Shown: positions 3,176-27,655 of the stretch, one piece after another | Numbering within the stretch: the first letter of the stretch is position 1 | Layout of the letters: each line of letters starts with the position of its first letter | Assembly (NCBI GenBank): GCA_902797885.1 | Contig: CADBUP010000171.1 | Span: 17,687 to 81,686, forward strand | Length of the DNA stretch: 64,000 nt | Reading direction: 5' to 3' | DNA from: an uncultured Ruminococcus sp. | Lineage (GTDB): Bacteria; Bacillota; Clostridia; Monoglobales; Monoglobaceae | Program-made: the position numbers and the translations under genes | Notes under the pieces: model-generated | What the model was told of the DNA's origin: nothing | Database searches by the model: none | The model's input: only the letters and a program-made list of their open reading frames with translations

Positions 3176-4362
3176 TGGATAAAACGCTTGTCCCTTTAAA
3201 CTGAAAAGTTTATCGATAACATGGTGAACCTGTAAATGCAGGGTGTCTTAATTTATTAAGGCTAACGGGGAAATCTAAACAATATACATAACACTGAAAC
3301 TATGATATAATACCACCAAAGAAAGGTGGTGGCTTTATGCGCTATAAAGACTTGACTGGGCAAAGATTCTTTTGGTTAACAGTAATAAGAAAATTCGACG
3401 ATCCTAATAGTAAAGAAGTAAAGTGGTTGTGTAAATGTGATTGTGGAAACGAAGTCGTCGTAACTGCTGCAAATTTAAAATCTGGGAATACAAAATCATG
3501 TGGTTGTTATTACCGATCGGAAAGATTAAGAGCCAACATAATAGGCAAACAATTTGGTTTTTTGACAGCAATAAAAAGAATAAACTCCAAAGATGTTTTA
3601 TGCAAATGTTTGTGTGGAAATGAAATAGTTGTTTCATATTCAAATTTAACAAGCGGGAACACGAGATCGTGTGGATGTGCGCTTGTAAGATTTATATTGA
3701 ACGATAAATTAACAAACTTGACAGGAAGAATATTTGGAGAATTATTAGTAATTGCTAGATACGGTGATATGAAAGGTAATAGAAACCCAAAATGGCTTTG
3801 TCGTTGCTCTTGCGGAAGATATACTATAGTAGATGGAGAAAAACTAAAGAGTGGACACACGCAATCATGCGGTTGCATGAAAAACAGTTTGCCAGAATCT
3901 ATTATTGTTAATTATCTAAGATCGCACAACGTATCCTATGAAAAAGAATATAAATTCAAAGATTTAAGAAGTGAAAAAGGATATCCACTAAGATTTGATT
4001 TTAAAATTAATACAGAAAACAGTTTTTTCTTATTGGAGTATCAAGGACAACAACACTACTTAAATCACGACGACTTTGGAAAGCAGCAAAGAGAAGTTAC
4101 TGATAAGCAAAAGAAAGATTATTGTATGAAAAATAATATCGAATTAATTGAAATAAAATACGATGAAGAGATAGTTTCAGTTCTGGAAAAAATATTAATT
4201 GAACATTGTATATTGCATGACAATCCCGTGCCAAGCTCTGACCAAGAGAAGGTGTAACGACTATCCCGCGAGGGAGTAGCTTCTACGTGAAACTCGTAGT
4301 CGCGAAGCGCCATGCATCCTAATATGGATGATGATATAGTCTAGCTTTATGGAAACATAAAG
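3176..4362 (+). mobile_element. group I intron (family 1) interrupting the RT gene
   Basis: GGTGAACC (3223-3230), GCTAACGGGGAAATCTAAAC (3261-3280), CCCGTGCCAAG (4224-4234), GAAGGTGTAACGACTATCC (4248-4266) and GATATAGTC (4333-4341, P7 3' strand). The same blocks recur in five other loci. Boundaries are accurate to a few nt. Confidence 0.75.
3337..4257 (+). CDS. intron-encoded homing endonuclease: 3 tandem CxCxCG...SCGC zinc modules + Vsr/DUF559-like PD-(D/E)XK domain
   Basis: AAAGGTGGTG RBS. Three ~50-aa repeats (e.g. WLCKCDCGNEVVVTAANLKSGNTKSCGC). C-terminal LRFDF...LLEYQGQQHY...TDKQKKDYC...IELIEIKY. Confidence 0.75.
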   Translation: MRYKDLTGQRFFWLTVIRKFDDPNSKEVKWLCKCDCGNEVVVTAANLKSGNTKSCGCYYRSERLRANIIGKQFGFLTAIKRINSKDVLCKCLCGNEIVVSYSNLTSGNTRSCGCALVRFILNDKLTNLTGRIFGELLVIARYGDMKGNRNPKWLCRCSCGRYTIVDGEKLKSGHTQSCGCMKNSLPESIIVNYLRSHNVSYEKEYKFKDLRSEKGYPLRFDFKINTENSFFLLEYQGQQHYLNHDDFGKQQREVTDKQKKDYCMKNNIELIEIKYDEEIVSVLEKILIEHCILHDNPVPSSDQEKV

Positions 4363-4594
4363 ACCCACTGGGCGGGAAAAGAAGTACTGGAAAAGTGCCA
4401 CAAACAACCTGATCATGGACTATAAGAACGGCAAGATTTGGGATGTTGACGACATCCGACACTACGAAGGGTTGCTTTCGTATTACAAAATGGTTGAACC
4501 GGATTGTTTTGATCAGCTGGTGAAACACTATGAAGAGAAGTATCACGTTAGTTTAAAGAAGATCATCAAATATTCTTTGAATAACGGCTGGTAA
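4363..4594 (+). CDS. reverse transcriptase, exon 2 (inferred)
   Basis: Open frame from 4361 to TAA 4592-4594 (PTGREKKYW...LEGLLSYYKMVEPDCFDQLVKHY). Joining 3175|4363 keeps the frame (GT+A=Val), giving 379 aa in total. Confidence 0.55.
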
Positions 4595-4599
4595 AGAGC

Positions 4600-5130
4600 G
4601 ATGCCAACAGTTTAAGAAACTGGGATCTGGTGTAATCAAATCTATCTTTACATGAAGGTAAAAATTACTTCAGAGTCGTCATCATAAATGTTTTAAAGCT
4701 CCGTTTTAAAACATTTCTTCTGACGACTCTGAAGTAATTAATAGTAAAATAAATCCTTACCAAATAATTTAAGGATTTATTTAGATCGCTCCATGTGGAG
4801 TTTAGGGTCACTCCCTAAACTTCGCTACCTCTCCAGCTTTTAGCTGGTGTTATCTTCTCCTTTCGTCCGTCGGACTCGTCACCCGACGGACATTATCCTG
4901 AAATTTTAATCTGCGGTGGCGGAATAAACACAAGCGGAATTGAATAAATAAACTATGTTTATTTGATAATCCGCAGTGGACGCAATAACAACGCTCATGC
5001 GAAGCGAGTTGTGTCAGTAGACGCTTATCAGCCTAAGGCGAATAGTTTCAAACAGGTTTTGCGATAAAGGCATATAATTCCTGCTCACTATCAATGTCGC
5101 TATGTGTGGTGGAAATCCACACCCGCAGTA
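4600..5130 (+). ncRNA. candidate large structured RNA / multi-hairpin region (function unknown)
   Basis: About 530 nt with no credible ORF. Hairpin 4663-4739 has a 19-bp outer stem and a 12-bp inner stem. Further hairpins at 4747-4782, 4800-4820, 4834-4848 and 4865-4891, followed by the repeat module 4916-5123. Confidence 0.3.
5099..5123 (+). repeat. 25-nt exact repeat GCTATGTGTGGTGGAAATCCACACC, copy A (contains hairpin GTGTGG/CCACAC)
   Basis: Identical to 6256-6280. Lies about 20 nt upstream of the ATG at 5143. Confidence 0.9.
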
Positions 5131-5142
5131 AAGGAGAACTAT

Positions 5143-5535
5143 ATGCATACGATATTAGTGTCAGAAAAATATTACTTCAGTGATGAAGATATGGAAAACA
5201 TTGTTGTCACGGCGTTAGAAGACGGTATTGGCTATTGGGCTTGTTTGGATAATTCCGATGTGGAGCCACGGGATTGGGGTGACTGGACAAAGAAGCCAAA
5301 GGATATGCCTACATCAGTATATGCCTGGAAAATCATTCAATCTGGCGGCACTCTGCACTTCTTGGATGCAGAAGACGAGACAGCGGAATATTACTTTAGC
5401 CTGGTAAACCTATATACAGGCATCAGTATGGCGATAGGATCTGGTATGTGGGACGGAGACATTGATATATTGGATTCGAGTGTTGCCGATGCTATCTTTC
5501 AATATGGACTATTTGGAAAGTTGGTATATTCATGA
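5143..5535 (+). CDS. hypothetical protein
   Basis: AAGGAG RBS 8 nt upstream of ATG 5143. ATGA stop/start overlap with the next ORF. Confidence 0.7.
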   Translation: MHTILVSEKYYFSDEDMENIVVTALEDGIGYWACLDNSDVEPRDWGDWTKKPKDMPTSVYAWKIIQSGGTLHFLDAEDETAEYYFSLVNLYTGISMAIGSGMWDGDIDILDSSVADAIFQYGLFGKLVYS

Positions 5536-5936
5536 GCAATTGGACGCATGTAGCCGGAATAATCCGGCTGGACTCGTTTCGGATCGATATGTATCCAGAG
5601 CCAAACTTCGATAAACTTTTCGGAAAGAAACTAAATTATGGAAATTGGGAAGACGCACGGAAACATCCTGAAAAATATCTTCCGTTCGGCAGTGAAGGCT
5701 CACTTGATAAATCAGTGTGGGTAAATCCAGAAAAAAGCAGTATTCCTGCGTATACGGTTTCGATCTTTGGCGATCTGAGAGATCATGATTCAGTCAAAGA
5801 TATTATCGAATGGTTCAAAGAAAAGTGTAAATTCTGTAACTCTGACAATACACATGTTTGGGTGCGGCAGGCGACTATTACAGCATCTAACGAGCGATAC
5901 GGAACAGAGTCTTGGACATACGAAGAAGAAGCTTAA
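5532..5936 (+). CDS. hypothetical protein
   Basis: Translationally coupled ORF of 134 aa. No motif recognised. Confidence 0.65.
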   Translation: MSNWTHVAGIIRLDSFRIDMYPEPNFDKLFGKKLNYGNWEDARKHPEKYLPFGSEGSLDKSVWVNPEKSSIPAYTVSIFGDLRDHDSVKDIIEWFKEKCKFCNSDNTHVWVRQATITASNERYGTESWTYEEEA

Positions 5937-5954
5937 TCCCGCGAAAGCGGGTAC

Positions 5955-6025
5955 GCAGCCGTAATGTAATGGCAACATATTTGCCTTCCAAGCAAAATTT
6001 GCGGGTTCGAATCCCGTCGGCTGCT
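5955..6025 (+). tRNA. tRNA-Gly (anticodon UCC); CCA follows at 6026-6028
   Basis: Hand-folded cloverleaf: acceptor GCAGCCG/CGGCTGC, D stem ATGT/ACAT, anticodon stem TTTGC/GCAAA with loop CTTCCAA, T arm GCGGG-TTCGAAT-CCCGT. Confidence 0.85.
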
Positions 6026-6028
6026 CCA

Positions 6029-6667
6029 AGGGAAAACGTGCGCTAAAATCTTCAAAGTGACCCTGCAAACGGTAAAAGAAGATTGACTGATAGGAAAGAC
6101 TATCGTTTTGCTGTGGCGGAATAGACAACCATAATCAAACCAATGCGCTTGGATTGGGAAGTTGGCAAGCAAATTATACAAGTTGCTTGTAGTAGACGCT
6201 TAAAACGTAAGGCTTGTCGCCGGTAAGCCCTTTGTGGAGCCGTGGCCGCAGTACTGCTATGTGTGGTGGAAATCCACACCGGCAAAACAATAGACCTGCC
6301 AGCGCCTCTGCTTAGCACGCGTACCTTGGGGGCACCGCATAACCGAACGCGGTATATAAGATTATGTAACTACGGTTGTTAGTGTTACTGCGCAGAGATG
6401 AAAGCTAACGTAAAAATTCTCAGCGCGTTTAACTTTGGTAAGGGCCCCGCACGCTGAGACAAGTGACGCGAACCATGCTGGGACTTTTATATGGTCTTTT
6501 GATATCTTCGGATTGAGAAAGTATGAAAACGGACGTGTCCATAAAAAAAGAAAGCCCAAATTTAAAGCCTGTAATAATCCTAGGTATATTACCAGCTTCT
6601 CACAACAGTCCAGTTCATATCGGCTTTCGGATAACCAACCATTTCGGATTGCATTGTGAGAACTTAT
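6029..6667 (+). ncRNA. candidate large structured ncRNA between two tRNAs (ROOL/GOLLD-class is a hypothesis only)
   Basis: About 640 nt with only short mutually overlapping ORFs on both strands. Visibly more GC-rich than its surroundings. Hairpins at 6166-6189, 6209-6232, 6261-6279 and 6390-6427. Flanked directly by tRNA-Gly and tRNA-Pro. Confidence 0.3.
6256..6280 (+). repeat. 25-nt exact repeat GCTATGTGTGGTGGAAATCCACACC, copy B
   Basis: Identical to 5099-5123. Part of a larger shared module (6113-6280 versus 4916-5123). Confidence 0.9.
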
Positions 6668-6740
6668 CTGGGTGTAGCGCAGTTGGCAGCGTGCCTGATT
6701 TGGGATCAGGAGGCCGCCGGTTCAAATCCGGCCACTCAGA
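6668..6740 (+). tRNA. tRNA-Pro (anticodon UGG)
   Basis: Acceptor CTGGGTG/CACTCAG (one G-U), anticodon stem CCTGA/TCAGG with loop TTTGGGA, T arm GCCGG-TTCAAAT-CCGGC. Confidence 0.85.
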
Positions 6741-6766
6741 TTAACAAAAAAAGGAGACAGATATCT

Positions 6767-7255
6767 ATGCCGTTGGAAGATAAATATTATTACATTGTCA
6801 GAAAACTGATCGAAGAAAAGAAAACGATTTCCACTATGGAAAGCTGCACCGGCGGATTCATTGCCTCTATGATTACCGATATTCCAGCCGCTTCAGAAGT
6901 AATAAAAGGCGCATTTGTAACATACAGTAATGAAGCTAAAATCAAACAAGGTGTACCTGAATGGATAATTAAATCGCGTGGTGTGTACTCAAATGAAACA
7001 GCATATATGATGGCCTACGCTTGTGCAAGACAGTATAACTCAAACGTTGGAATTGGTATCACGGGATGCTTCGGTAGCATAGATCCGCAAAATAAAGACG
7101 GCGTTCCTGGCGTTGTGGATATCGCAATTGTAGACGGAATTTACTCTGATTCGTGGACAAAAACGTTCGGCCCGTTTGGTTCTCGGCATGATTATAAAAT
7201 TGCCGTAGCTGATTTCGTAGCAGATAAACTAATGGAAATCCTGGAGATCGCCTGA
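6767..7255 (+). CDS. pncC: CinA C-terminal-domain / nicotinamide-mononucleotide deamidase-like protein
   Basis: AAGGAG RBS. ISTMESCTGGFIASMITDIPAASEVIKGAFVTYSNEAK matches the ESCTGG...G.V.YSN signature of the CinA/PncC family. The upstream in-frame extension overlaps tRNA-Pro and is rejected. Confidence 0.7.
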   Translation: MPLEDKYYYIVRKLIEEKKTISTMESCTGGFIASMITDIPAASEVIKGAFVTYSNEAKIKQGVPEWIIKSRGVYSNETAYMMAYACARQYNSNVGIGITGCFGSIDPQNKDGVPGVVDIAIVDGIYSDSWTKTFGPFGSRHDYKIAVADFVADKLMEILEIA

Positions 7256-7270
7256 CGGTCTCCCCTATCT

Positions 7271-7343
7271 GCGCCTGTAGCCAAGAGGATAAGGCCGCGC
7301 TCTTCTAAAGCGCTATTCGCGGGTTCGATCCCTGCCAGGCGCG
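7271..7343 (+). tRNA. tRNA-Arg (anticodon UCU)
   Basis: Acceptor GCGCCTG/CAGGCGC, anticodon stem GCGCT/AGCGC with loop CTTCTAA, T arm GCGGG-TTCGATC-CCTGC. Confidence 0.85.
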
Positions 7344-7370
7344 TTTTATTTCGCTATAAGGAGAAGTATT

Positions 7371-7763
7371 ATGAAAGAGTTTCTCTTGTTAATTACAATT
7401 ATTTTCTTTCATATTCTGGACGATTTTCATCTGCAGGGAATCTTAGCCTCCATGAAGCAAAAGAATTGGTGGGCAGAGCATTATCCTGATAAACTGTACA
7501 AGCATGATTATATTATCGCGCTGATTACACACTCTTTTTCCTGGTCGTTCATGGTTCATTTGCCGGCGTTCGTCTATCTGTATATCACAGGTAAACAAAT
7601 GCCATTGTTTTTCTTAATCATTTCTTTCGTGGCGCATATATGTTGTCACGCCTGTGTTGATAACGATAAGGCGAACAGACATATTATTTCGTTAGTTGAA
7701 GATCAATGTATTCATCTTATTCAGCTAATAGGAATCTGGATGATGTTCGTGCTATATCGTTAA
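7371..7763 (+). CDS. integral membrane protein (DUF3307-like, HILDDFHLQG motif)
   Basis: AAGGAG RBS. Several hydrophobic segments. Confidence 0.6.
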   Translation: MKEFLLLITIIFFHILDDFHLQGILASMKQKNWWAEHYPDKLYKHDYIIALITHSFSWSFMVHLPAFVYLYITGKQMPLFFLIISFVAHICCHACVDNDKANRHIISLVEDQCIHLIQLIGIWMMFVLYR

Positions 7764-7776
7764 GGAGAAGATAAAA

Positions 7777-8100
7777 ATGGAAATAAAAACTGAGTTAGTC
7801 CCAAGATATAAAGTTGGAGATCGAGTCAAAATCCGGTCAGTTCCAACGATACGACATCTATGTGCGACAACAGGTTTACTTGCTGGCTGGGGCTCACCAA
7901 TGGAGGAATTTTGCGGTAAAAGTTATGTTATTTCATCCATTGAACTATCCAATAGAAAAAATTTCTTTAAATATAAATTTCTTAAAATGCCAGAATCTAT
8001 GCAAATGTGGACGTGGTCAGAAGATATGTTCGATTTGGACGTTTCTCAGGAAGAGATAGAAAAACAGGAAAACGAGTTTCTGGAATTGATCGGTTTCTGA
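7777..8100 (+). CDS. hypothetical protein
   Basis: AAGGAG RBS. 107-aa ORF. Confidence 0.6.
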   Translation: MEIKTELVPRYKVGDRVKIRSVPTIRHLCATTGLLAGWGSPMEEFCGKSYVISSIELSNRKNFFKYKFLKMPESMQMWTWSEDMFDLDVSQEEIEKQENEFLELIGF

Positions 8101-8127
8101 TTATTATTTTCAGAAATGGTCGTTTTC

Positions 8128-8159
8128 GCGTCATCATTCGAGAATTGACGTAATGGAGA
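8128..8159 (+). repeat. conserved 26-nt element GCGTCATCATTCGAGAATTGACGTAA (copy 1), possible promoter/operator
   Basis: Identical 26-mer at 34197-34222. Contains TTGACG and the inverted pentamers CGTCA/TGACG. Confidence 0.6.
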
Positions 8160-8216
8160 GAAAGCCGCTCATTCAAAAAGCGTCTCGCTCTATTACTAAA
8201 TCAGAAGGGGGTCAGT

Positions 8217-9526: not shown

Positions 9527-9539
9527 GCGGTATAAGAGT

Positions 9540-10034: not shown

Positions 10035-10039
10035 TCGCT

Positions 10040-10300: not shown

Positions 10301-10366
10301 GACAGATCAGGCAAAAACAGCATAAAATAAAACATTAAAATTAATTTGATTATAGGAGCGATGATT

Positions 10367-11213: not shown

Positions 11214-11752
11214 ATGAGCGACAAATCATATCTTAAGAATCAAATCAGATTGGTATCCCTGAACGCGAACGATCTGTTTACAGATCAGGAACACGAAGTC
11301 TTCATGGATGTATGTGATCTTGTCCATGAACTGGAGAAAATGGACGCGGATGAAAACGCAGATCAGCTCCTGAAGAAAGAGTTAATAGCAAAGAGAAAAG
11401 AAAAATCTGCGCTGTTAACCGCCCTAATTAAGCAACATGCTGGCATTCCAAGAAAAGTAAGACTAAAGTCAGTCCTCATCCAGAATAAGGATCAGCCGCT
11501 CCCGACTGCAGCCACATGGAAGAATCTCAAATTCTCAAAGAAGATTTGTGAATTTGAGTCTGAAATGAGCCGTGCTATGGGGCTGCACCATCTAGACTAT
11601 ACGTTTGATAAAATTATCATTAAGTGGAAAAATATTGATCTCATGGAACAAATTGTTAAGGACGGATTCACTTTTGATATTTTAAAAGACGACGGCACTG
11701 TTGAAACGAAGAAGTTTCAGTACCTTACAAGTTCAGCTGGTCAAATTGGCCT
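11214..11752 (+). CDS. YonO-like single-subunit (two-barrel) RNA polymerase, exon 1
   Basis: AAGGAG RBS. The ORF ends inside intron landmarks. Part of a four-exon gene whose exons sum in frame to 959 aa. Confidence 0.6.
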
Positions 11753-12065
11753 GTAAGTCCCTTTCTGCCTCATCAGCAGGGTCACATACTTGTGGCTAAC
11801 GGAGAAAGCTAAACACATTCAATATCTAAATTACAACATTCTGTTATATGAAATCAGATATGACGAGAACGCGATTCGACGTCTTGATGAAATATTGAAT
11901 GTGCACGCTAATTCCGTGGGAACGGCTTCGGCTGAGCCTGTATCGACTATCTCCGCATCGGGAGAGTAAGGCTGTTATTGATACACAGTCTGAAATGGGC
12001 TTCTGCAAAATTTGCAGTAAGATATAGTCAGAGCCATATGAAAATATGGATAACTCGCAATTAAG
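11753..12065 (+). mobile_element. group I intron (family 1), endonuclease-less, with decayed HE remnant
   Basis: GCTAACGGAGAAAGCTAAAC, CGACTATCTCC, GATATAGTCA and GAAA-tetraloop hairpin CCATATGAAAATATGG. 11841-11918 translates LLYEIRYDENAIRRLDEILNVHANSV, the C-terminal tail of the family-1 endonuclease. Boundaries are approximate. Confidence 0.65.
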
Positions 12066-12171
12066 AACTTCTAAAATTTCATGTATATCAGAAGAAATGT
12101 GGCAGAAAATCCATGATCGTATCATGTGCGGTCTAACGTTTGAAAAGATCAACGCAAAAGGCGGGTGCAAT
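12066..12171 (+). CDS. YonO-like RNA polymerase, exon 2 (106-nt micro-exon, inferred)
   Basis: Open frame TSKISCISEEMWQKIHDRIMCGLTFEKINAKGGCN between two introns. The 3' end could instead be 12177. Confidence 0.45.
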
Positions 12172-12472
12172 GTGAATTGATTTTAGTTCCTTTGCGCAGT
12201 AATGTGCATAGCAAATGTGGTGAACCTACACATGTAGGGTGTCCAGACTGATGGGCTAACGGTAAAAATCTAAAACAAAAGCCCGTCGGTCTGGGCGCTT
12301 GTCATGACAATACCGTGCCAAGTCCAACCATGTCGGTTGGGAAGGTGTAGAGACTATTCCGTAAGGAAGTACACAGCCGGTGAAAATCCAGCGTGGAAGC
12401 GCCACACGACCTGTAAAGGCCGATGAGATAGTCCACTCCCTGTGAAATACTGCGAAAGCAGGGGTATAAAGG
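12172..12472 (+). mobile_element. group I intron (family 1), ORF-less
   Basis: GGTGAACCTACACATGTAGGGTGTCC, GCTAACGGTAAAAATCTAAAAC, CCGTGCCAAG, GAAGGTGTAGAGACTATTCC, GAGATAGTCC and CTGCGAAAGCAG tetraloop hairpin. About 300 nt. Confidence 0.7.
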
Positions 12473-13882
12473 AAACTGCTTGCCTATATTGCGTTGTCAA
12501 ATTCTGCCACTGATCCTTGGGACGACTTTGATATTGACCGTGTCATTGTTGTTCCAGACTGGGAAGCACCAGTAACTGGTGATATGCTGTACATAAAGCC
12601 AGATTACACAACAGAACGCGGTATCCGCACCGTTATGATCAAGCATACAGACGGTTGCGGAATGATGCTTCCTTCTGTATCTGACAAGAATTTTATGATT
12701 CGTGGACCGTTTGTTAAAGGATTACTCTCAGTGTTCGATTACATAAAATTTTGTAAAGAACATGGGGTTAAGCCAGAAATTGAAGATATTTACGGTGTTG
12801 TTCACGACTTGGAAAAAGAAAGAATTAATATCATTCTTTTTAAATCCATGTTTAAAATGAGCCACTACTTTGATTCCTGGAACTCGTACAAAGAATCCTT
12901 TAAGAAATACGGCTGCCACTTTGGGAAAACGAATTACGAAGAAGACTATTTGCCGGACAAGCAAATGAATTACCAGTTCACGCAAGCGGTGAATATGACT
13001 GATGAAGAAATCAGTAAATACACCGAGAAAGCACACAAGCGGCTGGAGAACCTCGCGAAGAATAAAACCTCCATGCTGCAAATGCTGAAAGCTTCTTCTA
13101 CTTCTCCTAATCCCTATTGTCGCGCTCTAATGATATATCCTGAATTGCTTAGAGATTACTACTCTCGTCAGCAATTGAAGGATATAAAGAAGAAAATGCT
13201 GTACGACGCAAAGTCCGGCGCAATCAAGTGCGAAAATAAGCGGTTGTTTGTCATCCCGGATTTATATGCTGCGTCAGAATACTATTTTCTTCATAAAGAG
13301 CGGCCTGACGGCCTTCTGAAAAATGGCGAAATCGCCTGCCGGCCGTACCGCACTCGCGGCAAAGCGGACGTCCTTCGCTCACCGTCGCTTTATATGGAAC
13401 ATAGTATAAATACTATTGTTGCTGATCCTAAAGTGTACGAATGGTTTACAACCGACGCAGTTGTGACCAGCTGCCATTCAATGATAAGTCGTATTCTGCA
13501 ATTCGATGTCGATGGAGATCAACTTAATGTGGTGGTTGATCCAGTAATTGTAAACGCAGCCGAAAGAAATCTGAAAGAACACGACATTGTCCCTTTGTTC
13601 TATGACGCGGCGAAAGCTAAAGATGAAATTGTCAATAAGGATTCAATATTCAACGGCCTGAAAAGAGCGCATGAATATTCAAATATTGGCGAGATCAGCA
13701 ATATGCTTACGTGTCTGTGGAATAGAAACAAGCCGGATATTGAAGCAGCTGCATTGCTTACTGCTCTCAATAATTGGCGCATAGATGGAGCAAAGACCGG
13801 ACTTGTTTATGAATACGCAAGTTATCCTCAAGTAACTAAACGTATAAATAAAGCTACAGGGGGATCTCACGCAAAGATGCCT
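12473..13882 (+). CDS. YonO-like RNA polymerase, exon 3 (catalytic DxDGD)
   Basis: ILQFDVDGDQLNVVVDP matches the Mg-binding NADFDGDQ motif of the multisubunit RNAP beta-prime barrel and of YonO/QDE-1-type enzymes. Confidence 0.7.
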
Positions 13883-15338
13883 TAACGAATAGGGCCGCAT
13901 ATTGGTAACAGTATGTGATAACGTGGTGAACCTGCAAACGCAGGGTGTCGCAGAAATGCGGCTAACGGGGAAAACTAAACGCAATTATTTTACTTAACTT
14001 TATACAGAAAGGTGGTGATAATATGAGCCATGCAAAATATTATAACGGAAAAACCATTAAAGAATGGTCTGCTGTTTGTGGGATCGAAGCAAAAACAATC
14101 AAAAACCGACTTAAAGAAGGTTGGTCTATTGACCATGCGATTTCTGTTCCGCTCGGTGAAAAGCGCGTTGCGACAATATCTCTATCAAAAATAGCTGCAG
14201 AAAATAAAATGTCGTTTAGTACATTGAAAAACAGGATCAACAAAGGAATGACAATTGAAGAAGCGATTAAATACGATCCGCGAAAAGATATGATAGGATA
14301 TAGATCAGGACGGCTTGTCGTAGAAAAAGAAATTGAACCAAAACGTGATCCATCTGGGAGACCAAGAAGACAGTTTTTATGTTTGTGCGATTGCGGAAAT
14401 GAAACAACAGCTCTTGCCGAAGTACTTATTTCTGGGAACAAGCGATCTTGCGGTTGTCTCGGAAAAGAAATAACATCTAAAAGACAAGAGAAAAATCTAA
14501 TTGGACAAACATTTGGAAGATGGTATATAGAAAGCGAAGCTTTTCGCGACAATCAAGGTATTCATTGGAACGCAGTGTGTTCTTGCGGAAATAAAGGCAC
14601 TCCAACAACAAGCAACTTATTAAAGGGAGTGAGCACGTCTTGTGGGTGTTACAATAAAGAACAAACCTCATTGCGTGAAAGAAAAGATTTAACAAATCAA
14701 AAGTTCTTTATGCTGACAGCGATTGAATACATTGGAATCGATGAATACAATAATTGTCTTTGGCGATGCAAATGCGATTGCGGAAATGAAATTGTGACGA
14801 CAGCCGGAAGATTGCTTGGAGGACAAATCATTTCATGTGGATGCCTTAGATCAAAATATGAACGTATGATTGAAGATGTTCTTATCTCGAAAAATATTTT
14901 CTTTAAAAAAGAAAAATATTTCAAAGATTTAAAACATATCAATTATTTGTTTTTTGATTTTTGCATCATAGATCATGATAACAACATTCATTTGATAGAA
15001 TATCAGGGCAAGCAGCACTATGTTGACTGTGGGGAATTTGGTAGATTGCAACGAGAGATAACAGATCAAATGAAAAAAGATTATTGTTCGAAAAACAATA
15101 TTCCATTATATGAAATTCGCTACGATAGCAATGTCGAAGATGAATTAAATAAGATAATTGCGCATGTCAATCCCGTGCTAAACTCTGAATTATCAGAGGA
15201 AGTGTAACGACTATCCCGTAAGGGAGTAACTACTACGTGAAATTCGTAGTTGTGAAGTGCCACGCAGACAAAGGATAGCTTTGCCTGAAGATATAGTCTA
15301 TTCCCCTAATAAATATCGGGAAACCGAGGGTACTATAG
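13883..15338 (+). mobile_element. group I intron (family 1) with homing-endonuclease ORF
   Basis: GGTGAACCTGCAAACGCAGGGTGTC, GCTAACGGGGAAAACTAAAC, GTGTAACGACTATCCC, GATATAGTCTA and TCGGGAAACCGA hairpin. Joining 13882|15339 is in phase 0. Confidence 0.75.
14023..15207 (+). CDS. intron-encoded homing endonuclease: 2 HTH-like repeats + 3 CxCxCG...SCGC modules + PD-(D/E)XK domain
   Basis: AAAGGTGGTG RBS. Contains LCLCDCGNE...SCGC, VCSCGNK...SCGC, WRCKCDCGNE...SCGC and FFDF...LIEYQGKQHY...IPLYEIRY. Confidence 0.75.
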   Translation: MSHAKYYNGKTIKEWSAVCGIEAKTIKNRLKEGWSIDHAISVPLGEKRVATISLSKIAAENKMSFSTLKNRINKGMTIEEAIKYDPRKDMIGYRSGRLVVEKEIEPKRDPSGRPRRQFLCLCDCGNETTALAEVLISGNKRSCGCLGKEITSKRQEKNLIGQTFGRWYIESEAFRDNQGIHWNAVCSCGNKGTPTTSNLLKGVSTSCGCYNKEQTSLRERKDLTNQKFFMLTAIEYIGIDEYNNCLWRCKCDCGNEIVTTAGRLLGGQIISCGCLRSKYERMIEDVLISKNIFFKKEKYFKDLKHINYLFFDFCIIDHDNNIHLIEYQGKQHYVDCGEFGRLQREITDQMKKDYCSKNNIPLYEIRYDSNVEDELNKIIAHVNPVLNSELSEEV

Positions 15339-16163
15339 TATTTCTTTCAATACAGTAAAAACGGCCGCTCATCAGGAAAGCCAAAGGAAAGCTACGCGAA
15401 GCCTACCAAATCAACCATGAACAGGATCTGTGCCGCATTCGATGATATCGGCAACATCAATCTGAATTTTGCAGGAGTGCCGCCGTTTAATTATCAGATG
15501 CTGCTTTCAGAGCCGTTCTATGACAAAAACACGGAACTAGTTCAAACATTCTGCGATTTAGACAGCATGTCTATCTCAACAGAAATAGCTCTGTCTGAAA
15601 TTCCGCCGCATGAAAGAAACTCTACTGGAATGTATGAAATTTTGGCAGACGTCATCAAAGAAACGCTAACGGAGCAATTTGGATCTATGGAATATTGTTA
15701 TCCAATACTCGTAAAAGCGCTTTTTGCTGGCGATAATTGGAAAAAAGCCTCGCATAAAAAGATGTTCTGGCGAATCTTTGGTGAAATTGCACTGCAAAAC
15801 ATAGAAAATAATCTTAAAGACCATACAGTGTGTCCTGATTGCGATGCAAAAATTCCCAAATGGGCCAAAGATCATACATGCCCAAAGAACACTTTAGGCT
15901 TCTACGTGTGCGAAGATTGCGGAAAGCAATGTGTCAGAATTAACTCAAGGCAGGTGCGATGTGAAGAATGCCAAAAAGCGCACAGGGAGGAATCCAACAA
16001 ACTTGCGCATACGAAAATGCGAGAACGTAAAAAGGTGTGTGAGAAACGGTGTATTTCTTTCTTGCGATCACGCTCGATGGCAACGTCAGAGACGGAACCT
16101 TCTGGCCAGCCTATGTTCTTTGTAAATCATGGACAACAAGCGAAAAGCGATCAGGATGGATAA
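15339..16163 (+). CDS. YonO-like RNA polymerase, exon 4 (C-terminal Zn-ribbon region)
   Basis: In-frame TAG at 15336-15338 marks the upstream limit of the open frame. CPDCDAK...CPKN...CEDCGKQC...CEECQ cysteine pairs. Confidence 0.6.
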   Translation, partial: YFFQYSKNGRSSGKPKESYAKPTKSTMNRICAAFDDIGNINLNFAGVPPFNYQMLLSEPFYDKNTELVQTFCDLDSMSISTEIALSEIPPHERNSTGMYEILADVIKETLTEQFGSMEYCYPILVKALFAGDNWKKASHKKMFWRIFGEIALQNIENNLKDHTVCPDCDAKIPKWAKDHTCPKNTLGFYVCEDCGKQCVRINSRQVRCEECQKAHREESNKLAHTKMRERKKVCEKRCISFLRSRSMATSETEPSGQPMFFVNHGQQAKSDQDG

Positions 16164-19801: not shown

Positions 19802-21063
19802 TAAATTTAGTCACCTCGGCAAGTAATTGTTGAGAAAAATGTGGTGAACCTATACATATAGGGTGTTCCATTTTTGGAGCTAACGGTAAAAATCTAAGTG
19901 ATGTGTTTAAATATATAATGAAAAGGAGGTGAAAGAATGAAACGAGCAGACTTAACTGGACAGACATTCGGGTGGTTAACCGTAGACCATTTTGAAAAAA
20001 TAATAACAGTTGGAAAAAATACAAAAAGAACTTTGTGGTCCTGTACATGTAAGTGCGGAAACACTGCATTTGCAACAACACAGGATTTAAGACAAGGTAA
20101 AGTGGTCTCATGCGGTTGCAAAAAAGCATATAACGCTAAAGATAGAATTATAGACGAAACAGGTAAAATTCATGGATTTCTTCGAGTGAAAGAAAAAGCC
20201 GGATCAGACGAGAATAGAAGAGTTTTATATCGTTGTGAATGTTTGTTGTGTGGAAAAGAGACTATTGTTTCAGGAAAGGCCTTACGTAGAGGCACAACTA
20301 AATCTTGTGGTTGTTTAAAAGTTGAAAATCGAAAGACTTTAGGAAAGAGAACCTTTAAGGATTTAACAGGCAAAACAATAGGGTATCTCTATGTCGAAAG
20401 CAGAGCAGAAAATAAATATTCTCAAGCAGGAAATCAATCAACAATGTGGAATTGCAAATGCCTCCTTTGTGGCGGGAAAACCGTTGTTGCTGGTACTGCA
20501 TTGTGGAATGGTCATACAAGATCTTGTGGATGTCTTCATATGTCATACGCAGAAAAAGACATAAACGATGAATTAATTAAGCTTAAAATTAATTTTTATC
20601 ACGATTATTCTTTCGACGATTTAATCAGCCCTTATTCAACCATGCCTTTACGTTTTGATTTTGCTCTTTTAGATGATTGGGGTTTAGTATTAGCTCTTTT
20701 AGAATATCAAGGAATTCAACACTTTCAAAAATTCAAAGATGGCTTTGGAGATATGCAAAGAGAAATCACAGATCCCATAAAAAAGGAGTATTGTAGAAAC
20801 AATAGCATTCCATTATATGAAATTCGATACAATGAAGAAATTATTCCGGCTCTACATAAAATTCTTTCAATGGTATATAACACATCATATGACAATACCG
20901 TGCCAAGCGAGCAGGAAACTGCTTGAAGGTGTAACGACTATTCCGTAAGGAAGTAGTTTGCAGGCGAAAATCCTGCTTACGAAGTGCCACACTCCTATTC
21001 TCAATAGGATGAAGAGATAGTCTACTCCCCTTGTTAAATATCGGGAAACCGAGGGTATTAAGG
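19802..21063 (+). mobile_element. group I intron (family 1) with homing-endonuclease ORF
   Basis: GGTGAACCTATACATATAGGGTGTTCC, GCTAACGGTAAAAATCTAAG, GGTGTAACGACTATTCC, GAGATAGTCTA and TCGGGAAACCGA. Joining 19801|21064 gives AT+A=Ile and ...AGNSVI|TNIATTVFSLEK. Confidence 0.75.
19937..20926 (+). CDS. intron-encoded homing endonuclease: 3 CxCxCG...SCGC modules + PD-(D/E)XK domain
   Basis: AAGGAGGTG RBS. Contains WSCTCKCGN...SCGC, YRCECLLCGK...SCGC, WNCKCLLCGG...SCGC and LRFDF...LLEYQGIQHF...IPLYEIRY. Confidence 0.75.
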   Translation: MKRADLTGQTFGWLTVDHFEKIITVGKNTKRTLWSCTCKCGNTAFATTQDLRQGKVVSCGCKKAYNAKDRIIDETGKIHGFLRVKEKAGSDENRRVLYRCECLLCGKETIVSGKALRRGTTKSCGCLKVENRKTLGKRTFKDLTGKTIGYLYVESRAENKYSQAGNQSTMWNCKCLLCGGKTVVAGTALWNGHTRSCGCLHMSYAEKDINDELIKLKINFYHDYSFDDLISPYSTMPLRFDFALLDDWGLVLALLEYQGIQHFQKFKDGFGDMQREITDPIKKEYCRNNSIPLYEIRYNEEIIPALHKILSMVYNTSYDNTVPSEQETA

Positions 21064-21313: not shown

Positions 21314-21327
21314 AGAAAGGATAGCAT

Positions 21328-22354: not shown

Positions 22355-22363
22355 GGAGTGCGT

Positions 22364-22819: not shown

Positions 22820-22825
22820 AAAGCT

Positions 22826-22993
22826 TTGACCGCAGAAGAAAGAAAAACAGAAGCTCTGGCCTGGGCGAAAGGCGTTATGGGAAAGATTCTCGACGTTTAC
22901 GTGGATCGTGACTTTGTCGAAGTCGTCGGCAAGGAAGGCGGAGATACACTTACGTTTAGATATTATTCGAAGGATAAGATCTATGAACGATGA
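22826..22993 (+). CDS. hypothetical small protein (TTG start, uncertain)
   Basis: 55-codon ORF filling an otherwise empty gap. Overlaps the next ATG. Confidence 0.3.
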   Translation: MTAEERKTEALAWAKGVMGKILDVYVDRDFVEVVGKEGGDTLTFRYYSKDKIYER

Positions 22994-23165
22994 TGAAAAG
23001 AATTTACTTTGGGATATTCTATGGAAACATAGAAACCACAAGCTGGAAGTAGCACGGTATGGCGGAAATGCCGCTCCTGAAGATGTCTGTCTCGAATGTC
23101 TTGATTGTAACGAAGTTATATTAGACGCTGAACTATATACAATTTGCCCGCAAGAAACGGAGTGA
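22983..23165 (+). CDS. hypothetical small protein (CLECLDC motif)
   Basis: ATG 22983. 60 aa. Confidence 0.5.
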   Translation: MNDDEKNLLWDILWKHRNHKLEVARYGGNAAPEDVCLECLDCNEVILDAELYTICPQETE

Positions 23166-23171
23166 TGTTCT

Positions 23172-23972
23172 TTGCTTGACGAAAACCATAGATATTCATA
23201 CTCTCAGTTATCATCCTTCTCAGAATGTCCATTTAGTTATTACCTATCACATATAGAGCGTCCAAGACCAGAAGAAGCTCCCAACGCCTGGGCTGAGCAA
23301 GGAACATTGATTCATGATCTGCTGGACAAATGGGCAAAGGGCGAACTTAAAAAAGAGGATTTAGCCGCTGAATATACTCGCAGATATGGAGACGAAGTTG
23401 TAACAGCGTTTCCAAGAATGCTGGCAACAAAAGGTTATGCTGAGAAGACATATCAGCAGGGGCTGGAATACTTTGAAAATTTCGATGGCTTTCCAGGTTA
23501 TGAGATAGTTGCAGCAGAAGAAGAGTATAAAATGCCACTGAAACTCACAGACGGAACTGAGCGGCCGTTCATTGCTTACATTGACTTAATTCTAAGAGAT
23601 CTAAGAAACGGCGGACTCGTTGTTATGGACCATAAGTCTAAGTCTTTGGCGTCATTCAAAAAAGATAAAGACAAAATGTATAAACAGCAATTCTTGTACT
23701 CCTATTTCGTTCATGAAAAATACGGCGAGTGGCCTGCCGTTTGCGCTTTTAACCTCTTTAAGGAGAACGGGTACATTGACGAACGTGAATTTACAACAAA
23801 AGAGTATGAGAAAACAATTCAGTGGGCTACAGATGCAATATATGCCATAGAAGAACGTGATCTGCTTGATTGGCTGGAATGTAAAGAGCTTCCAAAGTCG
23901 GGAAAGCCGGATCTGTTCTGTCAATCTATTTGCGGCTGGCATCTCATATGTCCGCAGGCGGCCGGGAGATAG
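23172..23972 (+). CDS. Cas4/RecB-like PD-(D/E)XK exonuclease with 4-Cys cluster
   Basis: YSYSQLSSFSECP...IDLILRD...VMDHKSK (D..D/ExK) and C-terminal CQSICGWHLICP. Confidence 0.7.
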   Translation: MLDENHRYSYSQLSSFSECPFSYYLSHIERPRPEEAPNAWAEQGTLIHDLLDKWAKGELKKEDLAAEYTRRYGDEVVTAFPRMLATKGYAEKTYQQGLEYFENFDGFPGYEIVAAEEEYKMPLKLTDGTERPFIAYIDLILRDLRNGGLVVMDHKSKSLASFKKDKDKMYKQQFLYSYFVHEKYGEWPAVCAFNLFKENGYIDEREFTTKEYEKTIQWATDAIYAIEERDLLDWLECKELPKSGKPDLFCQSICGWHLICPQAAGR

Positions 23973-23974
23973 CT

Positions 23975-24250
23975 ATGAAATTCAAAGATCCTATAGTTGG
24001 TGAGCAATACGATGAGTTTGTCTCCGTAATGCTTCGCTGCGCTGAGAAAAATCAGCTTCCTCAGCTAATGGAAATACGTGATGTTTCTAAAGTTACGCTT
24101 CCAGACATTCACGCCTTTATGTTGAAATTTACAAAAGATACATTGCTGAATATGAAATTTCAAGCTGAACTATGTCCTTACTGCGATAAGCTGCACGCTT
24201 TTTTGTTCGTAGACTATCCAGAAGAGGACGAACAAGAACCTTTAAATTAG
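23975..24250 (+). CDS. hypothetical protein
   Basis: ATG 23975 lies 2 nt after the upstream TAG stop. Confidence 0.55.
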   Translation: MKFKDPIVGEQYDEFVSVMLRCAEKNQLPQLMEIRDVSKVTLPDIHAFMLKFTKDTLLNMKFQAELCPYCDKLHAFLFVDYPEEDEQEPLN

Positions 24251-24260
24251 GAGATGCTAT

Positions 24261-24482
24261 ATGGGCGCTTACAGAGACAGAACAATGACCAATGCTTTCG
24301 GGAATGTAAATAAAGAGTGGAAGTATATGGTACGGCTTGCTGTCAGAATCAGAGAAGGCTATTACACTATAAAAGAAGAACAAGAATACAGGAAACTCTT
24401 TACTGGTATTTATAAACGGCTTTTGGAGGACCCAATGGACCAATTATATCAAGAGCGAGACGGTCGTAAACGTGCCAGCTAA
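24261..24482 (+). CDS. hypothetical small protein
   Basis: AGGAG RBS. 73 aa. Confidence 0.55.
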   Translation: MGAYRDRTMTNAFGNVNKEWKYMVRLAVRIREGYYTIKEEQEYRKLFTGIYKRLLEDPMDQLYQERDGRKRAS

Positions 24483-24511
24483 TCAAAATAAAAAATGGGG
24501 AGTGATGCACT

Positions 24512-26230
24512 TTGCTTGAGTACGAGGGGTATCACATTCACACTTGTTACAGTAATGCCCTAACTCAGCCGGATTCTACTGTGTTCATCAAGGATTACGC
24601 GAAAGCTTACCGAGAACGCGGGCATAAGGTATTGTGCATCTCAGAGCATGGAAATCGATCCAATGTGTGGGAGCAATTCGATATATGCGAAGCGTATAAG
24701 AACGATAAAGACAGTCCTTATGTAATGACGCCGATTGCGGCGGCTGAAGCATATTTTGTTCCAGACAGGCTAAAAGAAGTTGACGGAAAGAAAGACGGCA
24801 GAAACTTTCATTTGATTCTTGTAGCGAAAGACATGGAAGGTTTCTACGAATTAAACGAAGCGTTGTCGGAAGCCAATCTGACAGGTTTCTACAGTAAAGC
24901 CAGAGTGGATTTCGATATTCTGTCTAAGCTGGATTATAAACATTTTATATGCACAACCGCATGTGTAAGTGGCATATTAAAGGATGAAAGCTGCGAGCAG
25001 CTGGCTTGTCAGTTACATGAAATATTTAGAGAGAATTTCTATCTGGAAGTACAGCATCATCCACAAAGAATCCAGGCTGAAACAAATATCAAGGCTCTTC
25101 GGTTATATAAGAAATATAATTGGCCGCTGATCTACGGAACAGACAGTCACTATATTAACAAGGAAGACAAAATTCTGAGAACGGAGTTAATGAAGTCTGC
25201 AAATATAACATATGGCGATGAAGATTCGTTCGATCTTCATTTACCAACGGCGGCTGAAGCGTTCAAACTATTCCAAACTCAGGGCGTGCTGTCTAAAGCT
25301 CAGATCGAAGAAGCTATGGAAAACACTCTAATTTTGAGAGATTTTGAAGGCATACACTTTACAAAAGAAAAGAAGATTCCAAATTCTTATCCAGGAGTAC
25401 CAATAGAAAAAAGAAATTATCTATACAAGAAAACAGTTTGCGACGAATATATTAAGAAGGCAGGTATGCCAAATAAAGAAGAAGCAGCTGAGATTCATGC
25501 GGAAATGGACACGATAGCCGATACAGGTACGGCTGATTATTTCCTTATCATGAAGCGAATCATTGATAAGGGAATTGAATATGGTGGAGTATTAACTACA
25601 ACCGGTCGTGGATCAGGCGCATCGTTCGCAACTAACTACGCTATGGGATTTTCATCGATAAATAGATTACACTGCGCTGTAAAAATGTATCCTGAGCGTT
25701 TTATATCAGCTGATCGTTTGGCTAATGGGCTTCCAGATCTGGATTGCAACATGGCAAATGTATCTGCTTTCGAAAAGGCTGGAAAAGAAATATTAGGCGA
25801 ATATGGATGCCTTCCGATGATTGCGTTTGGAACCGTAAAAACACTATCAGCATTTAAATTGTTGGCCAGGGCCAGAGATTTGGACTTTGACACATCCAAC
25901 GCTGTGTCAAAACAAATTCAGAATTACGAACAAGACGTAAAATACGCCAAAGAAAACAACAGCGATGATCCTGATTATGATGTTGACGATGAAGTGCAAA
26001 TTGAGAATTATATTGACGATCAATACATAAAACTTGTTGAAGATTCAAAGCAGTATAAAGGAATTATAATAAGCACTTCTCCGCATCCCTGCGCTCATCT
26101 TTTATTAGATAAGGATATTCGAAGAGAGATTGGCGTTATTCGTGTCAAATCAAAATCTGGAAACAAGGACGCTGTATATGCCGCATTTATTGACGGAAAG
26201 ACGGCAGATAACTACAACTACTTAAAAGCT
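24512..26230 (+). CDS. DNA polymerase III alpha (DnaE)-like replicative polymerase, exon 1 (PHP + palm)
   Basis: N-terminal PHP signature YHIHTCYSN...ISEHGN. The ORF runs into intron landmarks. Confidence 0.75.
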
Positions 26231-27655
26231 AGATATTTGGCCTTTTCTATGGTAACATAGAATTGAAACATGGTGAACATATAAATATATGGTGTTGGGA
26301 TAAAACCCAGCTAACGGCAGAAAGCTAAATGCGAATAGATCAACAACGAAGAAAGAAGGTGAATAAATGCCAGCGAAAAAGAATTTAATTGGCCAAACAT
26401 TTGGGTGGTTAACTGTAATTAAAGAAGCTGAACCACTTATCTTGGCGAGCGGAAAATCAAGAACACAATGTGTTTGTTTGTGCAAATGTGGAAAGGAAAC
26501 AATCGTATCCTCTCAGTCCCTTATACAAGGCACAACAATTTCTTGTGGCTGTTTTGGTGCTATCGCAAGAACAGAAGGAAAAAGAAAAGCCGTGGAAAAC
26601 AAAATGCTCGATAAGCATTTTGGTCGCTGGCACGTTGACAGTTACGCTGGACAAAAATATTTACCTTCTGGTCAAACTCGTAGCTTATGGAATTGTACAT
26701 GTGAATGCGGAACACGCAGAACATTAACTACAAATCAATTAAATGAAGGAAGTTTAAGCTGTGGATGTTTACGTAGCGAACTCGCATCTGCTAGAGAAAC
26801 AATAAATTTAATTGGTATGCGTTTCGATTCTTTAGTGGTGTTAGAAAGAATTGGTTCAAAACATTATGGAAAACAAAAATTATCCATGCCACTATGGAAA
26901 TGCAAATGCGACTGCGGAAAAGAATGCATTGCAACATCTAGAGCTTTAATTGAAGGCAGAAAAAAATCATGTGGATGTCAACGCAGATTAAACTTAGAAG
27001 GTTTACGATTTGGATTGCTTGTAGTTATAAAATACGATGAAACAAAGAAAAAATGGCTTTGTAAATGCGACTGTGGAAACCTTACATATAAAGCTGCAGG
27101 GCATCTTCGAGCTGGCAGTGCAATTAGTTGCGGTTGTCAAGCAATGTCAAAAAATGAGATAATCATAAATGACTATCTCATGAATAAAGGAGTTAAATTT
27201 GCAAATCAATATTCTTTTAAAAAACTAAAAGGGCCTAATGGCGGGCAATTGAGATTTGACTTTGCAATTTTGAATGAAGATAATTTTCCAGTCGCGTTAA
27301 TAGAGTATCAAGGGCAGCAACATTTCGAAGAAATAGAAGGATACGAATATTTCGGAAAAACGGCTCGCGATATAACGGATTTCATTAAAAGGTTGTTCTG
27401 CGATCAAACACATATAGATCTATACACAATAAGCTACAATCAAAACGTAATTGAAGAATGCGATAAAATTCTTTCACAAATAAAATTCGCACATGCCAAT
27501 GCCGTGCCAAGCTCGAAAGAGAAGGTGTAACGACTATCCCATAAGGGAGTAGAACTCAGTGAAACTCTGCGTTCGAAGCGCCATGCAACCGGTTTTACGG
27601 TTGAAGAAATAGTCTAAACCCCTAATAAATATCGGGAAACCGAGGGTATTCATTG
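26231..27655 (+). mobile_element. group I intron (family 1) with homing-endonuclease ORF
   Basis: GGTGAACATATAAATATATGGTGTTGGG, GCTAACGGCAGAAAGCTAAATG, GGTGTAACGACTATCCC, AAATAGTCTA and TCGGGAAACCGA. Joining 26230|27656 gives ...YNYLKA|DFLRVDVV, matching the DnaE LKxDFLGL box. The two exons total 1161 aa. Confidence 0.75.
26367..27530 (+). CDS. intron-encoded homing endonuclease: 4 CxCxCG...SCGC modules + PD-(D/E)XK domain
   Basis: GAAGGTG RBS. Four repeats (CVCLCKCGKE, WNCTCECGTR, WKCKCDCGKE, WLCKCDCGNL, each ending SCGC). LRFDF...LIEYQGQQHF. Confidence 0.75.
   Translation: MPAKKNLIGQTFGWLTVIKEAEPLILASGKSRTQCVCLCKCGKETIVSSQSLIQGTTISCGCFGAIARTEGKRKAVENKMLDKHFGRWHVDSYAGQKYLPSGQTRSLWNCTCECGTRRTLTTNQLNEGSLSCGCLRSELASARETINLIGMRFDSLVVLERIGSKHYGKQKLSMPLWKCKCDCGKECIATSRALIEGRKKSCGCQRRLNLEGLRFGLLVVIKYDETKKKWLCKCDCGNLTYKAAGHLRAGSAISCGCQAMSKNEIIINDYLMNKGVKFANQYSFKKLKGPNGGQLRFDFAILNEDNFPVALIEYQGQQHFEEIEGYEYFGKTARDITDFIKRLFCDQTHIDLYTISYNQNVIEECDKILSQIKFAHANAVPSSKEKV

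Follow-up and report, generated by a model that had tools for sequence, protein, structure and literature searches.

What do the four open reading frames (ORFs) carried by group I introns of a single phage genome encode, and do their cysteine-rich repeats read DNA one unit at a time? The introns lie in a 64,000-nucleotide (nt) stretch of contig CADBUP010000171.1 (positions 17,687 to 81,686 of the forward strand; assembly GCA_902797885.1, uncultured Ruminococcus sp.), referred to here as the window, which is part of a ~147-kb metagenome-assembled phage. We consider it highly probable that the four ORFs are homing endonuclease genes seated in loops of related group I introns, and that their products join an array of zinc units to a Vsr-like nuclease. 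Homing endonucleases are drivers of phage genome mosaicism as well as a source of genome-engineering tools, and the nuclease in question belongs to a recently noticed outgroup of the EDxHD/Vsr class. An earlier interpretation, made from the letters of the DNA without database searches and called here the sequence-only reading, had drawn attention to these ORFs.

The four genes, A to D, are all on the forward strand, at 3337..4257 (306 amino acids (aa)), 14023..15207 (394 aa), 19937..20926 (329 aa), and 26367..27530 (387 aa). Each ATG is preceded, 6-9 nt upstream, by a strong Shine-Dalgarno sequence of the GGAGG type (AAAGGTGGTG or AAAGGAGGTG). A regular expression for the unit pattern, (C)xCx(x)CG-x(15-17)-SCGC, was scanned in all six frames of the 64 kb. 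It returned 13 zinc units, every one within ORFs A-D (3, 3, 3, and 4, respectively), and no CxCxCG…SCGC unit elsewhere in the window. The 13-fold recurrence of so long a pattern is far beyond chance. The Cys cores of gene A are at 3430-3507, 3601-3678, and 3799-3876; those of gene B are at 14380-14457, 14578-14649, and 14767-14844, the middle one being degenerate and devoid of its first Cys (AVCSCGN…SCGC). In gene C the units are at 20042-20119, 20234-20314, and 20453-20533, with a one-residue insertion that turns the last two into CxCxxCG variants, and in gene D they are at 26475-26552, 26694-26768, 26901-26978, and 27060-27137. The sequence-only reading had listed the same four ORFs with the same repeat numbers, all of which the motif scan confirms. 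It had also credited ORF B with two extra N-terminal helix-turn-helix (HTH)-like repeats (14023-14292), and residues 6-89 do match phrog_1065 and phrog_3377, as well as Sigma70_r4_2 weakly.

Downstream of the arrays, the C-terminal ~120 residues can be aligned in all four ORFs, in keeping with the common C-terminal domain that had been proposed. This domain is encoded at ~3883-4254 (A), ~14851-15204 (B), ~20543-20923 (C), and ~27144-27527 (D). Its invariant residues (ORF A numbering) are E187, F220-D221-F222, E234-Y-Q-G-x-Q-H240, T255-D256, K259, C263, and I273-x-Y275, and the proposed catalytic residues among them show little or no variation when 4, 30, or 38 sequences are aligned. The two halves of the proteins differ in charge, the zinc arrays being basic (isoelectric point 9.1-9.6) and the nuclease domains acidic (4.6-5.6).

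Structure prediction supports the assignment of the C-terminal domain to the PD-(D/E)XK nuclease superfamily. Modelled alone with AlphaFold2, the ORF A domain gave a predicted local distance difference test score (pLDDT) of 90 and a predicted template modelling score (pTM) of 0.80, with secondary structure elements in the order alpha-beta-beta-beta-alpha-beta-alpha. In a Foldseek search of the PDB, the matches with appreciable probability (up to 1.00) were all PD-(D/E)XK nucleases, including the R2 restriction-like endonuclease, AF1548, Bax1, McrC, TnsA (template modelling score 0.56), Hjc, Cas4, and RecU. The predicted fold is thus restriction-endonuclease-like, the point on which the sequence-only proposal of a Vsr/DUF559-type variant turned. 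The same search with the full-length model, diluted by the arrays, returned a polo-box protein and Csk at low probability, and when the PDB was searched by sequence, neither the full protein nor the profiles of the C-domain and the zinc unit gave a meaningful match. A structure search of viral proteins found 235 that share the predicted structure at E ≤ 1e-3, with annotations that include restriction enzyme, homing endonuclease, group I intron protein, DUF2726, and treble-clef zinc finger protein.

Weak profile matches point to the Vsr/DUF559/DUF2726 branch of that superfamily. No Pfam or NCBIfam model exceeded its threshold on any of the four ORFs; DUF2726 (PF10881) reached 15.3-18.2 bits on ORFs B-D, under its gathering threshold of 24.7, and did not match ORF A. 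Among 30 diverse family members, 21 matched DUF2726 (best E 2.2e-6), and one, P0042, passes the threshold with 25.1 bits. The other weak Pfam matches in this set were to DUF5889 (10 members), RAP (3), and DUF559 (3; best E 0.0084, sub-threshold), together with single matches to further PD-(D/E)XK families. VSR, DUF559, DUF2726, and the structure 3R3P form one clade (Steczkiewicz et al. 2012, PMC3424549). With that clade the window domains share the alpha-beta-beta-beta-alpha-beta core, an Asp on strand 2, the motif (I/L)E-x-(Q/D)-G-x-x-H on or after strand 3, and an Asp on the next helix; unlike its members, they fall below the Pfam thresholds, are fused to zinc arrays, and are borne by introns. 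LAGLIDADG, GIY-YIG, HNH, and His-Cys box domains were not detected in the ORFs by Pfam, profile, or structure matches, as the sequence-only reading had stated, and no HNH family in Pfam matched any of the four at E up to 1.

The sequence-only reading had further held that the EDxHD signature was missing. EDxHD is a composite of dispersed catalytic positions and not a contiguous motif, comprising E170, D196, N208, H213, and D222 in I-Bth0305I (PMC3239194). All five positions are present in ORF A, where a hand alignment places E187, D221, Q236, H240, and D256 on them, so this part of the description has to be given up. The I-Bth0305I gene is gp29 of Bacillus phage 0305phi8-36, from which the sequence was recovered. 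Its C-terminal domain (TTPERRVKEIL…WNVDFYL…LAIEVNGVYWH…NKDKRK…RVLTIEDDE) corresponds motif for motif, by inspection only, with that of ORF A (SLPESIIVNYL…LRFDFKI…FLLEYQGQQH…VTDKQKK…ELIEIKYDE), and the hydrophobic strands to either side of the composite E…D…x…H…D motif line up as well. I-Bth0305I comes from a group I intron of a Bacillus phage and combines an N-terminal HTH (NUMOD) DNA-binding region with a C-terminal Vsr-like nuclease (PMC3239194; PDB 3R3P). The window shows the organization that goes with the EDxHD class: a self-splicing intron, a conserved site in the host gene, and a predicted DNA-binding part at the N-terminus followed by a C-terminal nuclease. The two differ in that I-Bth0305I binds DNA through its HTH region, whereas ORFs A-D would do so through predicted zinc units, and in that the I-Bth0305I domain is assigned to Pfam DUF559, whereas the window family leans to DUF2726. 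A family-profile search with I-Bth0305I returned solely the crystallized construct.

Phage 0305phi8-36 also encodes gp194 (L002:14861-15373), a free-standing 170-aa 'homing nuclease' that is a member of the window family (hhalign E 6.9e-11) and whose N-terminus is a single CxxC…CxxC zinc ribbon. Since one genome encodes both I-Bth0305I and gp194, the two Vsr-like endonuclease branches coexist there.

Is the architecture new? Merk & Eddy (NAR 2025, PMC12350094) described phage intron endonucleases in which three to five ~60-aa zinc domains precede an EDxHD/Vsr-like nuclease, with thousands of relatives. Their analysis dealt with four such genes from group II introns of phages; they noted that the same phages have homologues in group I introns, and related the zinc domains to Pfam CapR, DUF4379, or DUF723. 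A hidden Markov model (HMM) of the window C-domain matches Staphylococcus phage S6_1720 (E 8.7e-31), the related Staphylococcus phage PB50 intron endonuclease (E 5.5e-23), and Bacillus phage AR9 gp146 (E 1.9e-20). Because these matches run from 1.9e-20 to 8.7e-31, we place the window nuclease in the same family as that of Merk & Eddy. The AR9 record already annotates its member as 'group I intron VSR', and PHROGs contains the family as phrog_374 and phrog_559 ('HNH endonuclease'), phrog_9084 ('homing endonuclease'), and phrog_7140 ('intron encoded nuclease'). The contention of the sequence-only reading that the architecture was unrecognized is therefore overtaken by these entries: the nuclease class has been known since 2009-2011 and the zinc-domain outgroup design since 2025. 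The window proteins share with the published endonucleases the nuclease family, the domain order, a similar number (3-5) and size (~60 aa) of zinc units, and encoding by self-splicing introns that interrupt phage genes for replication and transcription.

The zinc units themselves are where the two groups part. The published domains have ligands of the form (C/H)xxC…CPxC, whereas the window units read CxCxCG…SCGC. DUF4379, described in Pfam as a 'probable treble clef zinc finger', scores 64 bits on S6_1720 and 34 bits on PB50 against a cut-off of 24.5 bits, and lies just under it on AR9 gp146 (22.9 bits), which also gives 21.1 bits to CapR. Neither DUF4379 nor DUF723 matched any of 56 window-type units or any of the four ORFs, and CapR gave faint matches to 3 of the 56 units (best E 0.007). 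An hhalign comparison of the two unit types puts their ligands in register, as a marginal match (E 0.009, probability 4.5%). The CxCxCG…SCGC unit is a distinct and very abundant family without a Pfam or NCBIfam model, and no description of it was found in the literature searched.

In the full-length AlphaFold2 model of ORF A (pLDDT 87, pTM 0.49), each unit runs through three strands and then two helices, the first one short (L-x-x-G). Strand 2 ends in the CxC knuckle, and the CGC opens the second helix. Read from the secondary-structure string, the unit appears to be treble-clef-like. The spacer length is 16 in 81% of 533 homologue units. Of 340 unique canonical units, 93% have the first Cys. 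His stands in for the last Cys in 20 units and Lys in 23. The pattern suggests that the likely ligands are Cys 2 and Cys 3 together with the C-G-(C/H) pair; the first Cys is probably dispensable, because it is absent in about 7% of the canonical units.

A unit profile built from the 56 units and searched against 1.84 billion representative proteins retrieved 124,925 at E ≤ 1e-3, 67,727 at E ≤ 1e-10, and 8,989 at E ≤ 1e-30. Close homologues have 0-8 units, and arrays in the wider family as many as 13, which bears out the proposed variation in repeat number. A Vsr-like nuclease accompanies the unit in 31 of 142 newly retrieved top representatives. Elsewhere the unit is fused to an SF2 helicase, a Mom-family domain, or HNH_3 together with AP2, and some proteins consist of unit arrays alone (arrays and fusions, HNH and HTH among the partners, are represented by P0135, P0146, P0224, P0256, and L006-L009). 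Named examples are KIL1_0059 of Pseudomonas phage KIL1, with a true HNH domain that passes PF01844, Clostridioides phage CD1801, with AP2, and Enterococcus phage 113 and Rhizobium phage RHph_I1_23, with an HNH-like domain and HTH repeats. The name 'HNH endonuclease' used in PHROGs and RefSeq is wrong for members without an HNH domain; the mislabel arises because other proteins do join the zinc unit to a true one. Judged by its fusion partners, the unit seems to be a promiscuous, NUMOD-like nucleic-acid-targeting module, and the HNH, AP2, HTH, SF2 helicase, and Mom fusions fit a role in DNA targeting.

The genomic setting of ORFs A-D bears directly on their function. Five related group I introns lie on the forward strand inside 25 kb, four with intact endonuclease genes and one with a decayed copy. 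Splice sites were inferred by combining P1 pairing with a terminal G and an unbroken reading frame. Intron A (3180..4400; 5′ end from P1 pairing, 3′ end approximate) interrupts a reverse-transcriptase-like gene whose exon 1 is 2268-3179, and the RVT_1 and phrog_2825 matches end at the insertion. Intron B (13883..15338; bounds from all three of these criteria, the G being 3′-terminal) lies in a YonO-like RNA polymerase gene, which also matches phrog_8308, and its junction is in frame. The fifth intron (11739..12472) interrupts the same polymerase gene, where phrog_8308 profile positions 2-151 and 198-664 flank the insertion. Intron C (19802..21063; P1 pairing GUGAU/GUCAC, read from the sequence) is within the conserved helicase motif DDVAG..I|TN of a primase-helicase gene, and intron D (26231..27655) within the motif YLK(A)|DFL of the DNA polymerase III alpha gene, with phrog_405 positions 42-600 before the intron and 596-1039 after it.

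The spliced junctions are GGGAAATTCAGTGAT|AACAAATATCGCAAC for C and AACTACTTAAAAGCT|GATTTTCTAAGAGTA for D. The peptide spliced across junction C aligns without a gap with the intron-less primase/helicase of Flavonifractor phage Chenonceau, and that across junction D does so with the intron-less Pol III alpha of Bacillus phage MrDarsey. Insertion in conserved motifs such as DDVAG..I|TN and YLKA|DFL is typical of homing sites. With exon junctions defined, and two of them checked against intron-less homologues, the presumed targets are directly testable.

All five insertions share a group I core with long conserved blocks at both ends (TGGTGAACCTGTAAAT…GGCTAACGG at the 5′ end and CATGACAATCCCGTGCCAAGC…GTGTAACGACTATCCCGTAAGGGAGTAG…GAAGATATAGTCTA at the 3′ end). 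Three of the five match RF00028 at 21.8-24.4 bits, below the gathering threshold of 50 bits (15112-15320 in B, 27372-27637 in D, and 12183-12454 in the fifth intron), and A and C gave no match in this search; the low scores are attributable to the inserted ORFs, which split the model. Independent support for the introns comes from the core common to all five and from the collinear exons. Common cores, collinear host genes, and the gap-free junctions C and D together uphold the description of the four genes as intron ORFs. On the opposite strand, an ORF-less group I intron (57504-57923, -; RF00028, 71 bits, above the Rfam threshold) interrupts a Gly/Asn-rich ORF (58317-57883 and 57437-57084) in an oppositely transcribed part of the window.

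The endonucleases end in conserved tails, (H/Y)(D/A)N(P/T/A)VPS…, whose codons lie in the conserved ribozyme core sequence CATGACAATCCCGTGCCAAGC at 4215-4257, 15165-15207, 20884-20926, and 27488-27530. Because the coding sequence is also ribozyme core, the tail residues are probably constrained by RNA and not by protein.

Each ORF runs at its 3′ end into the ribozyme core, which could also be taken to mean that the zinc arrays bind RNA, the proteins serving mainly as maturases for their own introns while the nuclease is vestigial. Maturase activity has evolved in some homing endonucleases of other families, and RNA binding is possible for treble-clef and zinc-ribbon units. A vestigial nuclease is, however, hard to reconcile with proposed catalytic residues that are all invariant in the four copies and 30-38 homologues, and outside introns the unit is fused to DNA-directed partners (HNH, AP2, SF2 helicases, and Mom). 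Moreover, the ORF-less relative (57504-57923) and the relative with a decayed ORF (11739-12472) sit in apparently intact genes, which suggests that splicing is independent of the protein. We regard a mainly maturase role as very improbable.

The fifth intron retains the last ~50 codons of a nuclease gene (11790-11969, peptide NILLYEIRYDENAIRRLDEILNVHANSV), a snapshot of endonuclease gene decay. This remnant and the degenerate middle unit of ORF B raise the thought that all of these genes are decaying, inactive relics whose repeat arrays have no present function. Genes A-D are nonetheless full-length, with strong ribosome-binding sites, intact catalytic and zinc-ligand residues, and confident structure models (pLDDT 87 and 90), and the first Cys missing from the ORF B unit is the same one that other canonical units lack and that is probably dispensable. 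There is hardly any likelihood that the four are relics. The decayed copy, together with the ORF-less intron on the other strand, fits the usual cycle of gain, decay, and loss.

A third possibility is that the proteins are active site-specific nucleases whose main role is not classical intron homing but competition between phages, by cutting the genomes of co-infecting relatives (marker exclusion) or host DNA. Close homologues of ORF A occur at different loci, P0009 for instance in another gene neighbourhood, and many family members are free-standing or without introns. Nuclease genes reportedly lie at boundaries of inter-phage genetic exchange (PMC10055350). Set against this, every intact copy in the window is housed by a self-splicing intron that interrupts an essential gene within a conserved motif, and such genes exist intron-less in other phages, which is the signature of homing. 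Homing and exclusion are also compatible with each other. We judge competition or host DNA cutting to be an unlikely main role.

Gene and repeat anatomy, predicted fold, family, intron setting, and the occurrence of intron-less alleles are established above; zinc and DNA binding, cleavage, and homing itself are deduced from them. For homing, which we favour, a plausible sequence of events can be set out. The basic array of 3-4 zinc units, joined in ORF B by the two HTH modules, would bind extended intron-less target DNA, each unit holding one zinc ion between the CxC knuckle at the end of the beta-hairpin and the CGC at the start of the helix. The Vsr-like domain would then cut or nick near the insertion site in the conserved host-gene motif. 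Catalysis would be metal-dependent, with D221 and E234 as metal ligands, H240 as the general base, and E187 and D256 in supporting positions; the enzyme may act as a monomeric nickase or through transient dimerization. During co-infection, recombinational repair from the intron-containing copy would copy the intron with its gene, and excision of the element from the mRNA by the ribozyme would leave the essential host genes functional.

Several observations weigh against this assignment. The best Foldseek E-value of the C-domain is weak (2.7e-3), and 3R3P and Vsr lie outside the top 50 PDB matches of the model; the C-domain profile search of PDB sequences finds neither. An hhalign comparison of the family profile with the single I-Bth0305I sequence recovers the same region without significance (E 0.23). 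The third strand carries E-x-Q in place of the canonical E-x-K, and the chemistry of the window nuclease is for that reason assumed by analogy with Vsr. Whereas I-Bth0305I, the prototype of a class that cleaves beside its insertion site and leaves 2-nt 5′ overhangs, acts as a dimer on a pseudo-palindromic site, the four inferred window junctions show no such symmetry (5-7 of 12 positions, background mean 5.4, P(≥7) = 0.16), so dimeric cleavage of the I-Bth0305I kind is not supported. Zinc and DNA binding are suggested by two things, the sequence pattern and the fusion partners. The literature searched held no biochemical test of a member of this subfamily.

Does each unit read its own subsite, as the sequence-only reading proposed? 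The proposal is favoured by a nearly fixed scaffold whose variation is concentrated in the loop preceding the Trp and at positions 7-9, 11-14, 16-17, 19, and 21 downstream of the first Cys. The arrays have several features in common with NUMODs, the I-TevI zinc finger and HTH, C2H2 zinc fingers, and TALE (transcription activator-like effector) repeats: they are made of small, independently folding units on linkers, would extend the target of a weakly specific nuclease, vary in copy number, and are shuffled between nuclease types. Unlike C2H2 and TALE arrays, with their fixed periods of 28 aa and 34 aa, they are irregularly spaced (50-73 aa), and both the fold and the ligand pattern are different. 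The unit period is 53-73 aa in the window, and over 994 intervals the median is 64 aa with a 5-95% range of 55-72 aa. The low pTM of the full-length ORF A model, despite its high local confidence, also argues against a rigid code, as no fixed inter-unit geometry is predicted. On these models and spacings, the arrays look more like flexibly tethered modules than like a rigid solenoid with one repeat per subsite.

We accordingly think it rather doubtful that a usable recognition code, programmable and with one repeat per subsite, exists, and we know of none for such zinc-unit arrays. The broader idea, that the unit is a distinct DNA-recognition module and that each unit in an array of 2-13 reads its share of a long target through three hypervariable patches, we likewise hold to be a long shot, if one with some chance of being right. 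Were it true, specificity would be predictable or could be re-assorted, and the arrays would join zinc fingers and TALEs as the third modular system by which nature reads DNA, one that already occurs fused to effectors of the Vsr-like, HNH, helicase, and Mom kinds. Knowing what one unit recognizes would in any case improve the annotation of many phage 'hypothetical proteins', and unit recognition, once defined, could give a new DNA-targeting scaffold.

A 432-aa protein (P0018) that consists of the array only, without a nuclease, has seven near-identical units that differ almost only in three short patches, which is reminiscent of the variable residues in TALE repeats and again favours the programmable reading. 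The closest homologues of ORF A were considered as same-site orthologues from which specificity positions might be read, and were dropped, P0009 being in a different gene context.

Further features of the window concern the host genes and the phage itself. The gene that houses both the fifth intron and intron B (11214-16163) encodes a YonO-like single-subunit RNA polymerase in three exons separated by the two introns; it matches Pfam RdRP PF05183 as well as phrog_8308 and contains the motif FDVDGDQ. A near-identity search of a phage collection found no close relative of the phage and matched one conserved 48-nt intron segment alone. This segment (15285-15332) shares 94-98% identity with mostly unannotated DNA in more than 200 phages of Staphylococcus, Listeria, Enterococcus, Bacillus, and Lactobacillus. 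The strong GGAGG-type ribosome-binding sites and the nearest phage relatives suggest a Firmicutes host.

Directly upstream of the reverse-transcriptase-like gene that is split by intron A lie an ORF with a JAMM-like motif, HSHVNMG…S..D (227-1291), and a ThiF/E1-like ORF (1288-1956); such a phage cluster of JAB, E1, and reverse transcriptase genes may be an anti-defence or defence-like module. Between the blocks of replication genes, three tRNA genes, Gly-TCC, Pro-TGG, and Arg-TCT, occupy 5955-7344 on the forward strand.

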